From: Escherichia coli | GTDB lineage: Bacteria > Pseudomonadota > Gammaproteobacteria > Enterobacterales > Enterobacteriaceae | Length of the DNA: 64,000 bases | Strand: one strand, 5' to 3' | NCBI RefSeq assembly: GCF_001677475.2 | Contig: NZ_CP015229.1 | Shown here: positions 3,180 to 54,337 of the stretch, one piece after another | Numbering within the stretch: position 1 is the first letter of the stretch | How the letters are laid out: each line of letters begins with the position of its first letter | Notes under the pieces: model-generated | The model's database searches: none | Told to the model about the DNA's origin: nothing | Seen by the model: only the letters and a program-made list of their open reading frames with translations | Made by a program: the position numbers and the translations under genes

Positions 3180-4865
3180 TTATCCTAATCCAGGCCATAC
3201 CATGACGATGATTGTCCCTGCCAGCGTCAGCAGGACGTTGGCGATTGCGTAGGTGCCCGCATAGCCCAGCGCCGGGATGTTACTGCGAGCTGTATCACTG
3301 ATGATCTCCATTGCCGGCGCGCAGGTGCGTGCGCCCATCATTGCGCCAAACAACAGTGCGCGGTTCATTCTCAATACATAAGCACCGAACAAGAAACAGA
3401 TAACCACGGGCACCAGACTGACAATCAATCCGGCAATTAACATCTGACCGCCAATCGCGCCCAGGCCGTTATTAATACCGCTACCGGCGCTCAGACCAAC
3501 GCCTGCCATAAACACCATCAAGCCGAACTCTTTCACCATGCTTAATGCACCTTGCGGAATGTAACCGAAGGTCGGGTGGTTAGCACGCATAAAGCCCAGC
3601 ATAATTCCGGCGAATAACAACCCGGCAGCGTTCCCCATGCCGAAACTGAATGTGCTGAACTGGAAGGTGATCATCCCGATCATCAGCCCAATAACAAAGA
3701 AGGCGCAGAATGCCAGCAAATCAGTGACCTGGCTGTGAATCGAGATAAAGCCGATGCGATCGGCGATGGTTTTTACGCGGCGGGCATCGCCGCTGACTTG
3801 TAATACGTCACCTTTGTTAAGCACGACGTTGTCATCTATCGGCATCTCAATCTGGCTACGAATGACGCGGTTAAGGAAGCAACCGTGATCGGTCAACTTC
3901 AGTTGTGCGAGACGTTTGCCAACGGCGTTATGGTTTTTAACGACCACTTCTTCAGTGACGATACGCATGTCGAGAAGGTCACGATCGAAAACTTCTTTAC
4001 CGTTACGGAAGCTGGGATCGAGTCGGGCATGGGCGTCGGGATAGCCTACCAACGCTATTTCATCGCCCATTTGTAGCACGGCATCACCGTCTGGATTTGC
4101 CAGAATCCCGTTACGTCGAATACGTTCAATGTAGCAGCCGGTTTGTCGATAAATACCCAGCTCACGCAGATTTTTGCCGTCGGTCCAGGCCACCAGCTCC
4201 GGGCCGACGCGGTAGGCGCGGATCACCGGTAAATAAACCTTACGGTTGGCATCAGTGTCCAGGCCACGTTCGCGGGCGATTTGCTGGGCGCTGGTCTGTA
4301 AGTCCTGATGCTGCAATTTCGGCAAGTAACGCGCACCAACAATCAAACTCACCAGACCGATTAAATAGGTTAAGGCATACCCGAGGCTCAGATTATCCAG
4401 CGCCAGTGAGAGCTGTCTGCTTTCCATGCCGGAATGACGCAGTGTATCGCCAGCACCGACCAGAACCGGTGTCGACGTCATAGAGCCTGCTAACATACCG
4501 GCCGTCAGGCCAATATCCCAGCCAAACAGCTTACCTAACCCTAAGGCGATGACCAGCGCACTGCCAACCATCACCAGTGCTAACATTAGGTAATTTTTCC
4601 CATCGCGAAAAAAAATGGAAAAAAAGTTCGGTCCGGCTTCGACCCCGACGCAGAAAATAAACAGCATAAAGCCAAGATTAAGCGCGTCGGTGTTAATGCT
4701 GAAATGTTGTTGGCCTAATAACAGCGATACGACTAAAACGCCAATGGAATTACCCAGTTGGATCGAACCAAGTCGTAATTTCCCGAGACATAGCCCAAGC
4801 GCGAGGACCACAAATAATAACAGAATGTAATTCCCATTTAACAATTCGGCGACGTTTATATTCAC
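3180..4865 (-). CDS. ybjL: Putative transporter YbjL (AAE family with TrkA-C domains)
   Basis: 561-aa ORF; membrane domains flanking a central soluble region; N-terminus [20 protein letters not shown]. Confidence 0.85.
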
Positions 4866-31327: not shown

Positions 31328-32227
31328 TTACGCAGAGAAAAGGGCGATCAGAATCGGCACTAACAGGCTAAGAATAAAACCGTGAACAATCGCCGCTGGA
31401 ACCATCTCCAGCCCGCCTGTACGTTGAAGAACGGGCAGGGTGAAATCCATCGACGTCGCACCGCATAAGCCCAGTGCGGTAGAGCGGCTGCGGCGAATCA
31501 GCCCAGGAATCAACATAATAGCAATCAGCTCACGGGCAAGATCATTAAAAAACGCCGCGCTCCCGATTACCGGGCCAAAAGATTCAGTCAACAAAATACC
31601 GGAAAGAGAATACCAGCCGAAACCGGAGGCCATTGCCAGCGCGGTATTGATGGGGAGATCAAGAATAAAGGCGTTAATTAAGCCACCAATTAAAGAACTG
31701 GCAACCACCACCACAGCGACAATCATTCCCCGGCGATTAAGGACAATCTGCTTTAAGGTCATGCCATTATTGCGTAGCTGAATACCGACGAGGAAAAGTA
31801 ACAGAATTAAGGTGTATTCGCTGGCTTCAGTGGCGTGTTGTAAGAAACCTAATCCGCTAAGGCCAATGGCAAAACCAATTACGACTACGCCGCACAGTTT
31901 TAGCGACTCCAGCGCCATCGCAATACGCGATGGGAGTTTTTCTTGCTGATGGTGATTGCGCCATGGCAGGCCTCGCTCCAGCCACATAAGGGCGGCAATA
32001 TTACACAGTAAAATAACGGTAATACTGACGGCAGAATAATGCAGAATCGCCAACAGGTTACTGGCGAGGTTATCGAGAAACGCCAGACTGATACCCATAA
32101 AAAAGAGAATAAGGTAAACCATCCAGCTTAATAGCTGATTAATAACTCTTAATGCAGCTTTTTGGCGAAGAGGAATGAGGTAACCCACAATCAGGGGAAC
32201 CAGAATGATTAACAGCCCAGAAAACAT
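31328..32227 (-). CDS. lysO: Lysine exporter LysO (YbjE)
   Basis: ORF trimmed to MFSGLLIILVPLIVGYLIPLRQ, 299 aa, polytopic membrane protein. Confidence 0.85.
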   Translation of the reverse strand: MFSGLLIILVPLIVGYLIPLRQKAALRVINQLLSWMVYLILFFMGISLAFLDNLASNLLAILHYSAVSITVILLCNIAALMWLERGLPWRNHHQQEKLPSRIAMALESLKLCGVVVIGFAIGLSGLGFLQHATEASEYTLILLLFLVGIQLRNNGMTLKQIVLNRRGMIVAVVVVASSLIGGLINAFILDLPINTALAMASGFGWYSLSGILLTESFGPVIGSAAFFNDLARELIAIMLIPGLIRRSRSTALGLCGATSMDFTLPVLQRTGGLEMVPAAIVHGFILSLLVPILIALFSA

Positions 32228-43727: not shown

Positions 43728-44008
43728 ATCCTCTGGGGTATCACTACCGTAATTTGAACCGGCAAGATAATGCCGAAGTTCTGTAAATAAGTAAAGATTT
43801 GCGCGCTAAATCGCAACAAACAGGTTCGGCACATTACTCCGAAAACACACGGCTAAGCCGCACCAAAAGCGCAACGTATAAGGGAGCGGTGAGATAAACG
43901 ATGGGCGTTACCTGACGCGAAAAATTCCTTATCGGCAGCGGGGTAATGAGCGTAACCAACTCTGCGACCGCAATTATAACACTCTGGGGAGAAATGTGCC
44001 GAAAACAT

Positions 44009-44713
44009 TCATTCTTGTGGTGAAAACAAGCACCGTGGTACCCAGAAATTATTCGGCAATCGTCCGAGGCGCATTTGATTGAGATAATTGAGATAATCCC
44101 GGCGAGGAATTTCGCAGGCACCAAGCGACGCTGTGTGATCGTTAAGTACCTGGCAGTCGATAAGTTTACCGCCATGACCAATAAATTCCTCACAGAATAC
44201 CAGAAGCGCCGTTTTAGACGCATTTTCCATCCGGCTGAACATGGACTCGCCACAAAATAGCGTTCCCTGGGCCACGCCGTACATACCGCCGACAAGCTCA
44301 TCTTCACGCCAGACTTCAATAGAGTGGGCATGACCGAGTTCGTGAAGGCGATGGTAGGCTTCGACCACGCCACGCGTGATCCAGGTTCCTTCTTCGCGAT
44401 CGCTGGCACAGCCTTCAATGACCTGACCAAAAGCGTAATTCATCGTGACTCGATAGGGCGAGCGTTTATGAAATCGCTTCATACTACGGCTGATATGCAG
44501 TGATTCTGGCCATAGCACCGCGCGAGGATCGGGCGACCACCAGAGGATGGGGTCGCCTGGAGAAAACCACGGAAAAATACCACGCTGGTAAGCCATTAAC
44601 AGGCGCGCAGGGCTAAGATCGCCCCCCAGTGCCAGCAGGCCGTTAGGCTCACGTAATGCGCCTTCCGGGGAAGGGAAGGCTATTGAATGGCGAGAAAGCT
44701 GAACCAGGCGCAT
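44009..44713 (-). CDS. aat: Leucyl/phenylalanyl-tRNA-protein transferase
   Basis: 234-aa [38 protein letters not shown]. Confidence 0.9.
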
Positions 44714-44754
44714 GACCGCAAAACTCCACGCTAGTCGGATCGTTCAATAATAGC

Positions 44755-46476
44755 TTACAAACCCTGCTTAAACTGGTAATAACGCCCCTGTCTGGCAAGC
44801 AGTTCTGCGTGAGTACCTTGCTCAATAATTTGCCCGTTGTCCATCACTATTATTTTCTGGAAACGAGAGAGTCCGCGAAGTCGATGGGTGACCATTAACA
44901 CCGTTTTCTCATGCATCATTTCTGCAAGCAATTCAAGGATCTGACTTTCGGTTGTGGCATCTAAGCCTTCTGTAGGTTCATCCAGCAATACCAGCGGCGC
45001 ATCATGTAACAGCGCACGGGCGATAGCCAGACGGCGCAGTTCACCACCGGAGAGCTGGCGTCCGCCTTCACCTAACCAACTGTTGAGACCTGCATCCTCG
45101 AGCAGCTTCTCCAGACCAACGCGACGTAAGATCTCCGCCAGAGCCTCATCACTACTGCCAGGTGAGGCGAGTAACAGATTATCACGCAGCGTGGCGCTAA
45201 ACAGATGCACTCGCTGTGGCACAACGCTGATGGTCTGTCGTAGAGTCGCTTCATTCAGACTGGCTATGGGGCTATCGTTAAGCAAAATCTCGCCCTGTTG
45301 CGGGTCCCATGCGCGGGTCAGCAGTTGTAACAGTGTTGATTTGCCGCATCCGGTTCGCCCGAGAATCGCTATATGTTCCCCGGCGTTTACCTGAAGAGAA
45401 ATCCCTTTAAGTGCCTGTTGGGATTGCTCCGGATAAGTGAACTGAACATCCCGTAATGTCAGCGAAACGCGATCGGCAACACGAGTTTGGGTATCAGGGA
45501 AGGTGACCTCCGGTTTTTGATCCGTTAAATCAGTGATCCGAACGGCAGAGGCAATGACTTGCCCCAGATGCTGAAATGCACCCGTTACTGGTGCCAGTGC
45601 TTCAAACGCGGCTAACGCGCAGAAGACAAACAGGGCAATTAACGCGCCGGGTTGAGCATTGCCGCCAACGCCGCCAGACGCCATCCACAGCATCAGGATC
45701 ACCGCTAACGCGCCAATGAGCAGCATTATCGCTTGCGACAATGCGGTTAGTTCAGATTGACGGCGTTGCGCTTCCAGCCATTGAATTTCTGTATTCTCTA
45801 GTTGCGTGCGATAACGATCGCTGGCACCAAAAATGGTCAGCTCAGCTTGCCCTTGCAGCCAGGCCGTCAGTTGTTGGCGATACTGCCCGCGAAGATGAGT
45901 CAGATTTTGCCCGGTGCTTTTTCCCGCACGATAAAACAGCGGTGGCATCAGGAAAAGCGTCAGTAACATAATGCCGCCCAGCGTAAAGGCGAGGGTGAAA
46001 TCAAGGAAACTTAACCCGACTGTCACCACCATAATCACCACAAAAGCGCCCACCAGCGGCGAAATAACGCGCAGGTAAAGATGATCGAGCGTATCAACAT
46101 CCGCCACCACGCGGTTGAGCAATTCGCCCTGACGATAGCGCGCCAGTCCGGCAGGGGAGAGGGGTAGCAATTTGCTGAAGGTGTAAATGCGCAGATGCTG
46201 CAACACGCGGAAAGTCGCGTCGTGACTTACCAGACGTTCAAAATAACGCCCGGCAGTACGGGTGATTGCTGCGCCACGCACGCCCGCAGCGGGTAGCATG
46301 TAGTTGAAGCTGTACAGTCCGGCAACCCCCGCAATCGCTGAGGCGGAGAGGAACCAGCCCGAAAGTGTCAACAGACCGATACTGGCGAGCAGCGTGACAA
46401 TTGCCAGCACGATACCAAGACTTAACATCCATTTATGACGTTTATACAGTGCCAGATAGGGTAGCAAAGCGCGCAT
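44755..46476 (-). CDS. cydC: ABC exporter subunit CydC (glutathione/cysteine export, cytochrome bd assembly)
   Basis: 573-aa ORF; N-terminal TMD plus C-terminal NBD (GRTGCGKST, LSGGELRR). Confidence 0.9.
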   Translation of the reverse strand: MRALLPYLALYKRHKWMLSLGIVLAIVTLLASIGLLTLSGWFLSASAIAGVAGLYSFNYMLPAAGVRGAAITRTAGRYFERLVSHDATFRVLQHLRIYTFSKLLPLSPAGLARYRQGELLNRVVADVDTLDHLYLRVISPLVGAFVVIMVVTVGLSFLDFTLAFTLGGIMLLTLFLMPPLFYRAGKSTGQNLTHLRGQYRQQLTAWLQGQAELTIFGASDRYRTQLENTEIQWLEAQRRQSELTALSQAIMLLIGALAVILMLWMASGGVGGNAQPGALIALFVFCALAAFEALAPVTGAFQHLGQVIASAVRITDLTDQKPEVTFPDTQTRVADRVSLTLRDVQFTYPEQSQQALKGISLQVNAGEHIAILGRTGCGKSTLLQLLTRAWDPQQGEILLNDSPIASLNEATLRQTISVVPQRVHLFSATLRDNLLLASPGSSDEALAEILRRVGLEKLLEDAGLNSWLGEGGRQLSGGELRRLAIARALLHDAPLVLLDEPTEGLDATTESQILELLAEMMHEKTVLMVTHRLRGLSRFQKIIVMDNGQIIEQGTHAELLARQGRYYQFKQGL

Positions 46477-48243
46477 TTAAATCTCCTCCTGACGATGGGC
46501 CAGTAATGTGGCGAATGGGCCACCAGCCACACTTAATTCCGCGTAACGTCCTTGCTCAATAATCCGGCCATCCTGCATAACCCAAATGACATCCCAGTCA
46601 GCAAGATCTTCTAACTGGTGGGTGACCATTAACGTTGTCTGGCGCAGAGAGGCGGCATTCAGCGCCTCCATTACGCGCTGTTCACTGTGAGCATCAAGGC
46701 TGGCAGCGGGTTCATCCAACAGTAATAGCGAGCAGGGATTCAGTAACGCACGGGCCACCGCCACGCGCTGCGCCTGCCCCACGGAAAGGCGGGCAGCCTG
46801 GTCGCCAACAGGCGTATCAACGCCTTGTGGCAGGAGCGGTAGAAACTCACTGACCCAGGCGTTATCCAGCGCTGTTTGTAACTCGTGTTCGCTGGCATCA
46901 GGTCGTGCCAGTAGTACGTTATCCCGTAGTGTTGCTGCCGGTAATTGTGGGTTTTGCCCAACCCAGGAGAGATGTTTACGCCATGATTCCGGTGATAAAT
47001 CGCGTAATTCTATCCCGTTGATTCGTAGCGATCCCTGATATGAGAGAAAACCAGAAAGCGCGTTCAACAGTGAACTTTTACCTGAACCGCTGCGACCAAC
47101 CAACACCGCACGTTGGCCAGCTGGCAAAGTAAAGTTCAGCGGTCCGGCCAGCGTTTTACCTTCTGGTGATGTAATAAACAGCTCCTCGGCTTCAATGGTC
47201 ACCGGATCGGTCGATGCTAATTCCGCCTCACCACGCTGCGGATGGGCAAGCGGGGTTTCCATAAACGTTTTCAAACTGTCAGCTGCACCAACAGCCTGGG
47301 CTTTAGCATGATAAAACGTACCGAGATCGCGTAATGGCTGGAAAAACTCCGGCGCAAGGATCAGGGCCAGAAAACCCGCAGCCAGCGTCACGCCAGTATC
47401 GTAGTGACCAAAATCCAGCTCGCCGAGATAGGAAAAACCAAAGTAGACCGCCACCAGAGCAATTGACAGCGAGGTAAAAAATTCGAGAATGCCGGAGGAT
47501 AAAAACGCCAGCCGCAGCACTTCCATTGTCCGTTGGCGGAAATCTTCCGAAGCAGAACGAATACTTTCAATTTCAGCTTCACCACGACCAAAAATACGCA
47601 ATGTTTCCATGCCGCGCAGGCGATCGAGAAAATGCCCACTTAAGCGAGCAAGAGCGAGAAAGTTGCGTCGGTTAGCATCGGCAGCCCCCATTCCAACCAG
47701 CGCCATAAATAACGGAATTAGCGGTGCAGTGCCCAGTAGAATCAGCGCTGCAGCCCAGTTAGAGGGGAAGATAGCCACCACAATCAGCAACGGCACCGAC
47801 ACTGCCAGCGCCATTTGCGGCAGGTAGCGTGCATAGTAATCATGCATATCGTCAATTTGCTCGAGTACCAGCGTCGCCCAGCTCCCCGCCGGTTTACCCT
47901 GAATCCACGCTGGCCCTGCTTGTTGCAGACGGTCGAGAACCTGACGGCGGATGGCAAAGCGGATATGCTGCCCGGCGTGATAACCCACCCGTTCGCGTAA
48001 CCAGACCACCCATGCGCGCAGTACAAAGGTCAGAACCAGTAACGTAAAGGGAAGCAGCAGAGCTTCACGGGGAATATTCTCCATAATCATATGTTGCAGA
48101 ATTCGCGCCATGAACCAGGCCTGGGCAATGATCAATATGCCGCTCACAAAGCCCAGCAGACGAGAAATATTCAGCCAACGTTGGGAGATGACGCTTTGCT
48201 GTTTTAACCAGCGGGTTAACTCTTTTTGACGGGATTTATTCAT
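46477..48243 (-). CDS. cydD: ABC exporter subunit CydD
   Basis: 588-aa ORF; NBD motifs GRSGSGKSS, LSVGQAQR; directly abuts cydC. Confidence 0.9.
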   Translation of the reverse strand: MNKSRQKELTRWLKQQSVISQRWLNISRLLGFVSGILIIAQAWFMARILQHMIMENIPREALLLPFTLLVLTFVLRAWVVWLRERVGYHAGQHIRFAIRRQVLDRLQQAGPAWIQGKPAGSWATLVLEQIDDMHDYYARYLPQMALAVSVPLLIVVAIFPSNWAAALILLGTAPLIPLFMALVGMGAADANRRNFLALARLSGHFLDRLRGMETLRIFGRGEAEIESIRSASEDFRQRTMEVLRLAFLSSGILEFFTSLSIALVAVYFGFSYLGELDFGHYDTGVTLAAGFLALILAPEFFQPLRDLGTFYHAKAQAVGAADSLKTFMETPLAHPQRGEAELASTDPVTIEAEELFITSPEGKTLAGPLNFTLPAGQRAVLVGRSGSGKSSLLNALSGFLSYQGSLRINGIELRDLSPESWRKHLSWVGQNPQLPAATLRDNVLLARPDASEHELQTALDNAWVSEFLPLLPQGVDTPVGDQAARLSVGQAQRVAVARALLNPCSLLLLDEPAASLDAHSEQRVMEALNAASLRQTTLMVTHQLEDLADWDVIWVMQDGRIIEQGRYAELSVAGGPFATLLAHRQEEI

Positions 48244-48299
48244 TGCACGCTTAGCAGGTGAGTTATCAGAATTATTTGCAGAGCAATGTTACAACGAGG

Positions 48300-48340
48300 A
48301 AAAAATAAAGGCGACCCATAGTCGCATGGTGTCGCCTTCT
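48300..48340 (-). terminator. Intrinsic terminator of trxB
   Basis: Minus strand reads AAGGCGACaccatgcgactatgGGTCGCCTT followed by TATTTTTT. Confidence 0.7.
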
Positions 48341-48365
48341 TTACTTTTGTTACTGATTTGTAAAA

Positions 48366-49448
<1,083 letters not shown>

Positions 49449-49874
49449 TCAAATTCTCCCGTCATTATCACCTCTGCTACTTAAATTTCCCGCTTTATAA
49501 GCCGATTAAATGATGAATAAACGCCCCTGGTAATGAATATCTGGCATGTTGTACTAAAAATCGATGTTTTGCTTTGACAATCCCCTGGTGTTTTGCGAAA
49601 ACATTCGAGGAAGAAAAAAACAGTATTCTTATATGCGCATAACCATGCATGTAAATACCATGTTTACCGTGCTAGTGAAATCTACGTATGGCGTGGACAG
49701 ACGCCATTCGTGATGTCGATAGCTGCCACAAGGCAACGGTCTTCTCACCGTAGACCCAGGCATTGCGCGCCGTGAATCTTCATGATTTCGGTCTATCGTG
49801 ACGGGTAGCGACTCTGAACAGTGATGTTTCAGGGTCAGACAGGAGTAGGGAAGGAATACAGAGAGACAATAATA

Positions 49875-50369
49875 ATGGTAGATAGCAAGAAGCGCCCTGG
49901 CAAAGATCTCGACCGTATCGATCGTAACATTCTTAATGAGTTGCAAAAGGATGGGCGTATTTCTAACGTCGAGCTTTCTAAACGTGTGGGACTTTCCCCA
50001 ACGCCGTGCCTTGAGCGTGTGCGTCGGCTGGAAAGACAAGGGTTTATTCAGGGCTATACGGCGCTGCTGAACCCCCATTATCTGGATGCATCACTTCTGG
50101 TATTCGTTGAGATTACTCTGAATCGTGGCGCACCGGATGTGTTTGAACAATTCAATACCGCTGTACAAAAACTTGAAGAAATTCAGGAGTGTCATTTAGT
50201 ATCCGGTGATTTCGACTACCTGTTGAAAACACGCGTGCCGGATATGTCAGCTTACCGTAAGTTGCTGGGGGAAACCCTGCTGCGTCTGCCTGGCGTCAAT
50301 GACACACGGACATACGTTGTTATGGAAGAAGTCAAGCAGAGTAATCGTCTGGTTATTAAGACGCGCTAA
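49875..50369 (+). CDS. lrp: Leucine-responsive regulatory protein
   Basis: ORF trimmed to MVDSKKRPGKDLDRIDRNILNELQKDGRISNVELSKRVGLSPTPCLERV, 164 aa. Confidence 0.95.
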   Translation: MVDSKKRPGKDLDRIDRNILNELQKDGRISNVELSKRVGLSPTPCLERVRRLERQGFIQGYTALLNPHYLDASLLVFVEITLNRGAPDVFEQFNTAVQKLEEIQECHLVSGDFDYLLKTRVPDMSAYRKLLGETLLRLPGVNDTRTYVVMEEVKQSNRLVIKTR

Positions 50370-50409
50370 CACGGAACAGGTGCAAAATCGGCGTATTTTG
50401 ATTACACTC

Positions 50410-50425
50410 CTGTTAATCCATACAG
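50410..50425. promoter_or_regulatory. LexA box (CTGT-N8-ACAG) in the ftsK upstream region
   Basis: CTGTtaatccatACAG read directly; ftsK is recalled to have an SOS-inducible promoter. Confidence 0.55.
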
Positions 50426-50503
50426 CAACAGTACTGGGGTAACCTGGTACTGTTGTCCGTTTTAGCATCGGGCAGGAAAAGCCTGTAACCTGGAGAGCCT
50501 TTC

Positions 50504-53500
50504 TTGAGCCAGGAATACACTGAAGACAAAGAAGTCACATTGACAAAGTTAAGTAGCGGCCGCCGCCTTCTGGAGGCGTTGCTGATCCTTATTGTCCTGT
50601 TTGCCGTCTGGTTGATGGCTGCCTTACTAAGCTTTAACCCTTCGGACCCCAGCTGGTCGCAAACGGCCTGGCATGAACCTATCCATAATTTAGGTGGGAT
50701 GCCCGGTGCGTGGTTGGCAGATACGCTGTTCTTTATTTTTGGCGTGATGGCTTACACCATTCCCGTCATTATTGTCGGCGGTTGTTGGTTTGCCTGGCGT
50801 CATCAGTCCAGCGACGAATACATTGATTATTTTGCCGTTTCGCTACGCATCATTGGCGTTTTGGCGCTCATCCTTACCTCCTGTGGTCTGGCGGCAATCA
50901 ACGCTGATGATATCTGGTATTTTGCCTCCGGTGGCGTCATTGGCAGCTTACTAAGTACTACGCTACAACCACTGCTACACAGTAGCGGGGGAACTATTGC
51001 GCTGCTCTGCGTTTGGGCTGCGGGCCTGACGCTGTTCACCGGTTGGTCATGGGTGACCATTGCTGAAAAACTCGGCGGCTGGATTTTAAACATTCTCACC
51101 TTCGCCAGTAATCGTACCCGTCGCGATGATACCTGGGTCGATGAAGATGAATATGAAGATGACGAAGAGTATGAAGATGAAAACCACGGCAAACAGCATG
51201 AAACACGCCGTGCCCGTATTCTTCGCGGCGCGCTAGCGCGTCGTAAACGGTTGGCGGAAAAATTCATTAATCCGATGGGGCGGCAAACAGACGCTGCGTT
51301 GTTCTCCGGTAAGCGGATGGATGATGAAGAAGAGATTACCTACACTGCACGCGGTGTGGCTGCCGACCCGGACGACGTCCTATTTTCGGGCAATCGTGCA
51401 ACGCAGCCAGAATATGACGAATACGATCCATTATTAAACGGTGCGCCAATTACCGAACCTGTCGCTGTAGCAGCTGCTGCTACCACGGCGACACAAAGCT
51501 GGGCTGCGCCGGTTGAACCTGTGACTCAGACGCCGCCTGTTGCCTCTGTTGATGTTCCACCTTCGCAACCTACAGTAGCCTGGCAGCCTGTACCGGGTCC
51601 ACAAACGGGAGAGCCGGTTATTGCTCCTGCACCGGAAGGTTACCCACAGCAGTCACAATATGCGCAGCCTGCAGTGCAATATAATGAGCCGCTGCAACAA
51701 CCAGTACAGCCGCAGCAGCCGTATTATGCACCTGCAGCTGAACAACCTGCGCAACAGCCGTATTATGCCCCTGCGCCAGAACAACCGGTGGCAGGTAACG
51801 CCTGGCAAGCCGAAGAGCAGCAATCCACTTTTGCTCCACAGTCTACATACCAGACTGAGCAAACTTATCAGCAGCCAGCCGCTCAGGAGCCGTTGTACCA
51901 ACAGCAGCAACCCGTTGAACAGCACTCTGTTGTGGAGCCTGAGCCCGTTGTAGAAGAGACAAAACCCGCGCGTCCGCCGCTTTACTATTTTGAAGAAGTG
52001 GAAGAGAAGCGTGCCCGTGAACGTGAACAACTTGCGGCCTGGTATCAACCGATTCCTGAACCGGTTAAAGAACCAGAACCGATCAAATCTTCGCTGAAAG
52101 CACCTTCTGTTGAAGCAGTATCTCCAGTGGAAGCCGCTGCCGCTGTTTCCCCTTTGGCATCTGGCGTGAAAAAAGCGACACTGGCGACGGGGGCTGCTGC
52201 AACCGTTGCCGCGCCAGTCTTCAGTCTGGCAAATAGCGCTGGACCGCGTCCGCAGGTCAAAGAGGGGATTGGCCCGCAGTTGCCACGACCGAAACGTATC
52301 CGCGTGCCAACTCGTCGTGAATTGGCGTCTTACGGTATTAAGCTGCCCTCACAGCGTGCGGCGGAAGAAAAAGCCCGTGAAGCCCAGCGCAATCAGTATG
52401 ATTCTGGCGATCAGTATAACGATGATGAAATCGATGCGATGCAGCAGGATGAACTGGCACGTCAGTTCGCCCAGACACAGCAGCAACGCTATGGCGAACA
52501 GTATCAACATGATGTGCCCGTAAACGCAGAAGATGCAGATGCTGCGGCAGAGGCTGAACTGGCTCGTCAGTTTGCGCAAACTCAACAACAACGTTATTCC
52601 GGCGAACAACCGGCTGGGGCGAATCCGTTCTCGCTGGATGATTTTGAATTTTCGCCAATGAAAGCGTTGTTGGATGATGGTCCACACGAACCGCTGTTTA
52701 CGCCAATTGTTGAACCTGTACAGCAGCCGCAACAACCGGTAGCGCCACAGCCGCAGTATCAGCAGCCACAACAGCCAGTTGCGCCACAGCCGCAGGATAC
52801 CCTGCTTCATCCGCTGTTGATGCGTAATGGCGACAGCCGTCCGTTGCATAAACCGACGACGCCGCTGCCTTCTCTGGATTTGCTGACACCGCCGCCGAGC
52901 GAAGTGGAGCCGGTAGATACCTTTGCGCTTGAACAAATGGCGCGCCTGGTGGAAGCGCGTCTGGCTGATTTCCGTATTAAAGCCGATGTCGTCAATTACT
53001 CTCCGGGGCCGGTTATCACTCGCTTTGAATTGAACCTGGCACCGGGCGTAAAAGCGGCGCGCATTTCTAATTTGTCACGGGACCTGGCCCGTTCACTTTC
53101 TACGGTGGCGGTGCGTGTCGTTGAAGTTATTCCTGGCAAACCCTATGTAGGTCTGGAGTTACCGAATAAAAAACGACAAACCGTTTATCTGCGCGAAGTT
53201 TTGGATAACGCCAAATTCCGCGATAATCCGTCGCCATTAACCGTGGTGCTGGGTAAAGATATCGCCGGTGAGCCGGTGGTTGCCGATCTGGCGAAAATGC
53301 CGCACTTGTTGGTTGCGGGGACTACCGGTTCCGGTAAGTCTGTCGGTGTGAACGCGATGATCCTGAGCATGCTTTATAAAGCACAGCCAGAAGATGTGCG
53401 TTTCATCATGATCGACCCGAAAATGCTGGAGCTTTCGGTTTATGAAGGCATTCCGCACCTGTTAACGGAAGTCGTTACTGATATGAAAGATGCCGCCAAC

Positions 53501-54337
53501 GCGCTGCGCTGGTGTGTTAACGAGATGGAACGTCGGTATAAACTGATGTCTGCGCTGGGTGTGCGTAATCTGGCGGGTTATAACGAAAAAATTGCTGAAG
53601 CCGATCGCATGATGCGTCCGATTCCAGACCCGTACTGGAAGCCGGGTGACAGTATGGATGCCCAGCATCCGGTGCTGAAAAAGGAACCGTACATTGTGGT
53701 GTTGGTGGACGAATTTGCCGACCTGATGATGACGGTAGGTAAAAAAGTGGAAGAGCTGATAGCACGTCTGGCACAAAAAGCCCGTGCCGCGGGTATCCAT
53801 CTCGTACTGGCAACTCAGCGTCCATCGGTTGATGTTATTACTGGTCTGATTAAAGCGAATATTCCGACCCGTATCGCCTTTACCGTATCCAGTAAGATTG
53901 ACTCACGTACCATTCTTGATCAGGCTGGCGCGGAATCACTGCTGGGTATGGGGGATATGCTTTACTCTGGGCCGAACTCCACGTTGCCGGTACGTGTTCA
54001 TGGTGCTTTTGTTCGCGATCAGGAAGTTCATGCCGTGGTGCAGGACTGGAAAGCGCGTGGTCGCCCACAGTATGTTGATGGCATCACCTCCGACACTGAA
54101 AGCGAAGGTGGCGCGGGCGGTTTCGATGGTGCTGAAGAACTGGATCCGTTGTTCGATCAGGCGGTGCAGTTTGTTACTGAAAAACGCAAAGCGTCAATTT
54201 CTGGCGTACAGCGTCAGTTCCGCATTGGTTATAACCGTGCAGCGCGTATTATCGAACAGATGGAAGCGCAGGGGATTGTCAGCGAACAGGGGCACAACGG
54301 TAATCGTGAAGTGCTGGCCCCACCGCCGTTTGACTAA
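50504..54337 (+). CDS. ftsK: DNA translocase FtsK (1277 aa here; shorter PQ-rich linker than the ~1329 aa recalled for K-12)
   Basis: TTG start [12 protein letters not shown]-terminal membrane domain, long Pro/Gln-rich linker, C-terminal motor (GTTGSGKS) and winged-helix gamma domain. Confidence 0.92.

Follow-up and report, generated by a model that had tools for sequence, protein, structure and literature searches.

We identified a tandem repeat of two 39-bp units, here called array B, in the ftsK gene of an Escherichia coli DNA stretch of 64,000 nucleotides (contig NZ_CP015229.1; hereafter, the window). Array B very probably represents a rare, short allele of a minisatellite long known from the PQ-rich linker of FtsK; this allele would have arisen by the loss of internal units, and its length would be tolerated. 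Polymorphism at this array is already known and has served as a typing marker since 2007, and within it the window allele is ordinary.

The ftsK locus and its linker

The ftsK coding sequence of the window (50504..54337, + strand), delimited from the list of open reading frames and its translation, Pfam domains and gene order, starts with TTG (50504-50506), as it does in K-12 MG1655, and encodes 1277 aa plus stop. A Pfam scan placed FtsK_4TM at residues 20-191, FtsK_alpha at 788-888, FtsK_SpoIIIE at 896-1109 and FtsK_gamma at 1212-1272. The product has the make-up of an FtsK, with the 4TM domain, the alpha and beta parts of the motor and the gamma domain in order, and with a long low-complexity linker (residues 201-800 contain 13% P, 13% A and 12% Q). 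The gene is in the orthologous position, between lrp and lolA in the order trxB-lrp-ftsK-lolA-rarA, with neighbours as in K-12, and the window is 98.35% identical to the K-12 locus at the DNA level.

The FtsK linker is unstructured and PQ-rich, and its length varies widely between bacteria (PMC5357621, PMC3870252). FtsQ, L, I and Z are reported partners of parts of the linker, and filamentation is reported to rise when the linker is mutated (PMC5357621, citing Dubarry 2010 and Bigot 2004). A truncated FtsK of residues 1-210, as the only FtsK expressed, keeps cells alive, although they filament (PMC3870252). An earlier reading of the window from its letters alone (the sequence-only reading) had stressed that the polymorphism falls in an essential gene; this overstates the constraint on the linker, because residues 1-210 suffice for viability and the array lies at residues 740-764.

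According to Touzain et al. 2010 (PMC2884548), no E. coli gene has more in-frame variable segments than ftsK, with four. Array B and a second array of the linker (array A, below) are two such ‘small variable segments’; that study is a genome-wide catalogue and does not describe the specific allele of the window.

Other repeats were also noted in this part of the gene. Tandem Repeats Finder (TRF) reported a GATGAA-type 6/18-bp repeat at 51140-51181, which encodes a 13-residue acidic run just past the membrane domain. Upstream of array B, at 52445-52600, a dispersed direct repeat encodes a 14-residue stretch plus (G/SG)EQ twice, about 40 residues apart, and is shared with K-12.

Two 39-bp arrays in the linker

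Array B (52721..52795, + strand; FtsK residues 740-764) was defined by TRF, by its unit sequences and by alignment with K-12. TRF delimited exactly 52721-52795, with a period of 39, 1.9 copies, 88% matches and a score of 122. Unit 1 (52721-52759, CAGCAGCCGCAACAACCGGTAGCGCCACAGCCGCAGTAT) encodes the full 13-residue peptide. Unit 2 (52760-52795, CAGCAGCCACAACAGCCAGTTGCGCCACAGCCGCAG) encodes 12 residues, without the final Tyr codon, and GATACCCTGCTT, which encodes DTLL, follows directly 3' of it, so that the arrangement initially read from the letters, two tandem 39-bp copies with the second truncated before DTLL, was recovered in full. Of 36 positions compared, four differ between the two units, and the encoded peptide is identical. 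The folded translocase starts with FtsK_alpha (52865..53167, + strand; located by the Pfam scan), 23 residues past the end of the array.

The MG1655 annotation gives ftsK 3990 nt, that is, 1329 aa, and array B has six units in K-12 against two in the window. In a protein alignment, the window and K-12 FtsK proteins differ by 12 substitutions and by a single gap of 52 residues. This gap is the sole indel, lies wholly inside array B and equals exactly four units. Thus, both the K-12 length with its additional copies, as given in the sequence-only reading, and its equation of the 52-residue difference with four 13-residue units are borne out. The periodicity of array B is not a chance effect of a PQ-rich composition, because homologous in-register arrays of 1-9 units occupy the same place in other genomes.

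Array A (51713..51790, + strand; FtsK residues 404-429; TRF 51711-51786) is a 39-bp VNTR of two 13-residue units. Its copy number is two in both the window and K-12; of 60 complete genomes sampled, 59 have two, three or four (spans of 678, 717 and 756 bp), and the array is polymorphic also across loci L003-L007. Array A is a VNTR independent of array B, and together the two account for most FtsK length classes, with a 15-bp partial unit adding to the variation. Intact annotated FtsK proteins in the E. coli records examined range from the 1277 aa of the window, the shortest among them, to 1381 aa.

Array B is the typing locus CVN001

The generic E. coli MLVA scheme, GECM-7/GECM-10, is reportedly that of Lindstedt et al. 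2007 and Løbersli et al. 2012. Its locus CVN001 is amplified with the published primers AACCGGCTGGGGCGAATCC and GGCGGCGGTGTCAGCAAATC, and the allele is calculated as (product - 250)/39 (PMC8143711 Table 1). Both primers match the window exactly, the forward one at 52608..52626 (+ strand) and the reverse one at 52877..52896 (- strand), and in-silico PCR predicted a product of 289 bp for the window, which is allele 1, and of 445 bp for K-12, which is allele 5. The primers flank array B, the 39-bp unit and the 250-bp offset yield whole allele numbers for both the window and K-12, and the copy number varies between strains; array B is MLVA locus CVN001. The MLVA allele number equals the TRF-style unit count minus one.

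In the MLVA literature examined, ftsK is not named as the gene of CVN001, and the link between the two was made here by in-silico PCR. A literature search for ftsK with tandem repeats or MLVA in E. coli returned an ftsK link for Salmonella MLVA only. One candidate source on the 39-bp repeat, PMC4853403, was discarded as irrelevant: the ‘39 bp’ mentioned there is the JUMPstart element only.

The Salmonella locus, STTR7/SENTR2 of Salmonella enterica ftsK, is, like array B, a 39-bp in-frame linker repeat used for MLVA, a likeness across genera that is drawn from literature descriptions. Salmonella ftsK repeat units are subject to indels between isolates (PMC6137255).

In a published survey of CVN001, alleles 4, 5, 6, 7 and 8 had frequencies of 1, 40, 40, 13 and 5%, respectively (PMC5217547 Table 3); the window, with allele 1, falls below this reported range of 4-8. 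Furthermore, one ST131 isolate carried CVN001 allele 2, whereas most other ST131 isolates of the same study carried allele 6 (PMC3407997).

Copy number across E. coli

Array B length was surveyed with a query in which the two flanks of the array were joined and the array removed, so that the span of a match gives the length of the array. The survey set comprised 5,426 complete E. coli genomes, from which two systematic samples of 60 yielded 118 distinct genomes. This flank-only query was used instead of a 701-bp query that included the array, for which joined and unjoined pieces were ambiguous (1,285 records were at least 80% covered) and alleles could not be counted.

Seven units were the most frequent state (49/118 genomes), followed by six (38/118), eight (11/118), five (7/118) and nine (2/118), and a further seven genomes, B2 strains such as CFT073, had six units plus a 15-bp partial unit. 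Single genomes (1/118 each) had five units plus 15 bp, two units, one unit, or another arrangement with a flank deletion. After the one-unit numbering offset, this distribution agrees with the published CVN001 frequencies (PMC5217547). Repeat-number polymorphism, as proposed from the window alone, is therefore evident, with alleles of 1-9 units among the E. coli genomes sampled. The two-copy arrangement, which would have spoken against that proposal had it been the norm in reference FtsK sequences, is absent from K-12 and from about 99% of the 118 sampled genomes.

Two-unit arrays were found in at least eight complete records, namely, RM12761 and RM13516 (O145:H28), THO-008 (two records), STN0717-11, UID2309220031, GF60 and 873.10, and one-unit arrays in several records among the matches listed. 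The sources of these two-copy alleles were ice cream, human blood, chicken meat and beef. Among the records examined, the two-unit alleles comprise three unit-sequence versions, none of them identical to that of the window, and are accompanied by three or four copies of array A. That there are three versions, all unlike the one in the window, implies that short alleles arose more than once, and with two-copy alleles present repeatedly on different backgrounds, copy number is homoplastic when considered by itself. The usefulness of the array as a strain marker, which the sequence-only reading had put forward, holds for typing, where it has been in use as CVN001 since 2007 and so is not new; it does not hold for copy number taken alone.

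Several unusual arrays were encountered. The 15-bp partial unit (QQPQY) lies inside array B in strains that include 25POL, CFT073, Seattle 1946 and JCM 20135, where the array is then 246 bp long; this additional partial unit shifts the register of the later units and makes MLVA sizes non-integer. In strain Z1323HEC0300 (NZ_CP148366.1), a natural in-frame deletion has removed the otherwise conserved 5' neighbour of array B and the beginning of the first unit; GEQP now abuts VAPQ, with a short CAACCGG microhomology at the junction, and FtsK is annotated as intact with 1326 aa. In CRE10 (NZ_CP034404.1), the ftsK annotation shows a frameshift and the array region is garbled, with the left flank duplicated, which most likely reflects a consensus or assembly error at the array B repeat.

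Origin of the short allele

The unit consists of 13 codons, and a change by whole units therefore never breaks the reading frame. Tandem units that are about 90% identical could misalign at replication (slippage) or undergo unequal sister-strand exchange, and either process would delete whole internal units in frame and leave a two-unit allele. Such gain or loss of units would alter only the length of the flexible tether between FtsK-N, the membrane/divisome anchor, and FtsK-C, the hexameric motor, and short alleles may persist because length is presumably weakly constrained in the last stretch of the disordered linker. Slippage and recombination are indistinguishable from sequence alone.

Arrays of intermediate length bear on this scenario. 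A 3-copy array consists of K-12 units 1, 5 and 6, and a 4-copy array of K-12 units 1, 2, 4 and 6; to judge from this order of units, both appear to be direct signs of interior-unit loss. In the window, the 5' half of unit 1 (…GGTAGCGCCACAGCCGCAGTAT) is typical of first units, and its 3' half, GCGCCACAGCCGCAGTAT, is otherwise found in interior units of long arrays. Such a hybrid of a first and an interior unit is what would be expected if the deletion junction lay within the unit.

Strand misalignment that changes copy number would be common to array B and to contingency loci, the phase-variable simple-sequence repeats. However, contingency loci switch genes on and off, whereas array B alleles of 1-9 units stay in frame and the intact ones encode full-length FtsK. 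With a unit of 39 bp (13 codons) inside the coding sequence, array B is not a phase-variable locus of that kind.

Alternative explanations

Three other accounts of the two-unit array were weighed. It is extremely improbable that the true genome contains more units, which an assembler collapsed to two. Short-read assemblers can collapse tandem arrays, the longer array B alleles do contain repeated 31-mers (two in K-12 and seven in F8704-2), and the garbled, frameshifted array of CRE10 comes from a public ‘complete’ genome. However, no 21-, 31- or 55-mer occurs twice in the two-unit array, which thus assembles unambiguously, whereas six- and seven-unit arrays have repeated 21- and 31-mers; an independent assembly (run SRR3929499) matches the window base for base over 9,834 bp; and the same 1277-aa protein is found as ANO88089.1 and in three further NCBI accessions labelled Escherichia coli (9-11 contigs, the largest of 5,498,453 bp). 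In addition, genuine one-, two-, three- and four-unit alleles are present in finished genomes. Judged from these sequence comparisons, assembly collapse of array B in the window appears unlikely. It is also improbable, if less so, that two units are the old state of a deep-branching window lineage and that expansion produced the arrays of typical E. coli. All complete RefSeq E. coli genomes diverge from the window by 1.4-2.9%, and short arrays also occur in related species, with about 3 degenerate units in E. albertii and 4 in E. whittamii. These two come from a degenerate-pattern scan of Escherichia species representatives, which also detected 5 units in strain SCPM-O-B-8794, 8 in Escherichia sp. 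MOD1-EC7003 and 9 in Escherichia sp. E1V33. Thus, none of the outgroups examined has fewer than three units and two of them have eight to nine, which argues against an ancestral two-unit array, as do the 9.3 copies of the Salmonella Enteritidis array (PMC2430564), the dominance of six to seven units in the sampled complete E. coli genomes, the hybrid appearance of unit 1 in the window and the multi-unit loss recorded within a clone, in the ST131 isolate mentioned above (PMC3407997). Contraction would then be the parsimonious direction for the window allele. The ancestral unit number is uncertain given the range of about 3 to 9 units in other Escherichia species, and the scan, with six loci that did not include the main E. 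coli representative, E. fergusonii, E. marmotae, E. ruysiae or Salmonella, resolves the direction of change in part. Accordingly worded, contraction by slippage or recombination, as suggested in the sequence-only reading, stands as the parsimonious account, with signs of interior-unit loss in other arrays; its direction falls short of strict proof, and its mechanism is one that we infer.

The third account is adaptive: copy number would be under selection, with tether length or the number of motifs adjusting the coupling between septum closure and DNA translocation or the binding of partners. Across 22 distinct array B units, one variable site falls at the first codon position, three at the second and ten at the third, so the residues of the unit are conserved whereas its synonymous sites drift, and the peptide may therefore be more than an inert spacer. 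The linker contacts with FtsQ, L, I and Z and the filamentation of linker mutants, as reported in PMC5357621, point the same way. However, no association with host or source was seen in the samples, the two-copy alleles having come from the varied sources named above; in Salmonella, swapping ftsK alleles that differ by an 84-bp indel (28 residues; 2/9 repeats according to the authors) left the one tested phenotype unchanged (PMC6137255); and the copy-number distribution resembles that of a neutral typing minisatellite (PMC5217547). We consider adaptive tuning highly improbable. A related idea, to which we likewise attach very little weight, is that the conserved 13-residue motif with its (P/Q)QY end, just before the motor, is a functional module, for example for binding or spacing, and that extreme alleles, such as the two-unit one, would measurably shift the timing between septum closure and DNA translocation. 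If this were true, the VNTR would be a natural tuning dial for chromosome segregation.

The window lineage

The best identity of the window to any of the 5,426 complete RefSeq E. coli genomes is 97.1% (at 24000-32000) and 98.6% (at 44000-52000), and the window is 95.5% identical to Escherichia sp. MOD1-EC7003. The nearest relative with a long array is therefore not close, as the window lineage is at most 97.1-98.6% identical to complete genomes. The window probably represents an E. coli lineage that branches deeply, perhaps cryptic clade I; Shigella was also weighed, with no support for it. In the E. albertii locus (NBRC 107761, at about 4140-4320), a run of 11 alanines (QQQPAAAAAAAAAAAPQPQY) stands in place of the first unit.

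Implications

The preferred reading, a short allele that would have arisen by the loss of internal units, makes the window a case of a two-unit allele within a lineage that is poorly represented among finished genomes. Beyond bookkeeping, the importance of array B is small, as it is an established marker in a linker with already documented variability, and its copy number is unsuitable as a lone lineage marker. For the FtsK family in E. coli, the length differences between annotations (1277-1381 aa) reflect in-frame repeat arrays and are not annotation errors.
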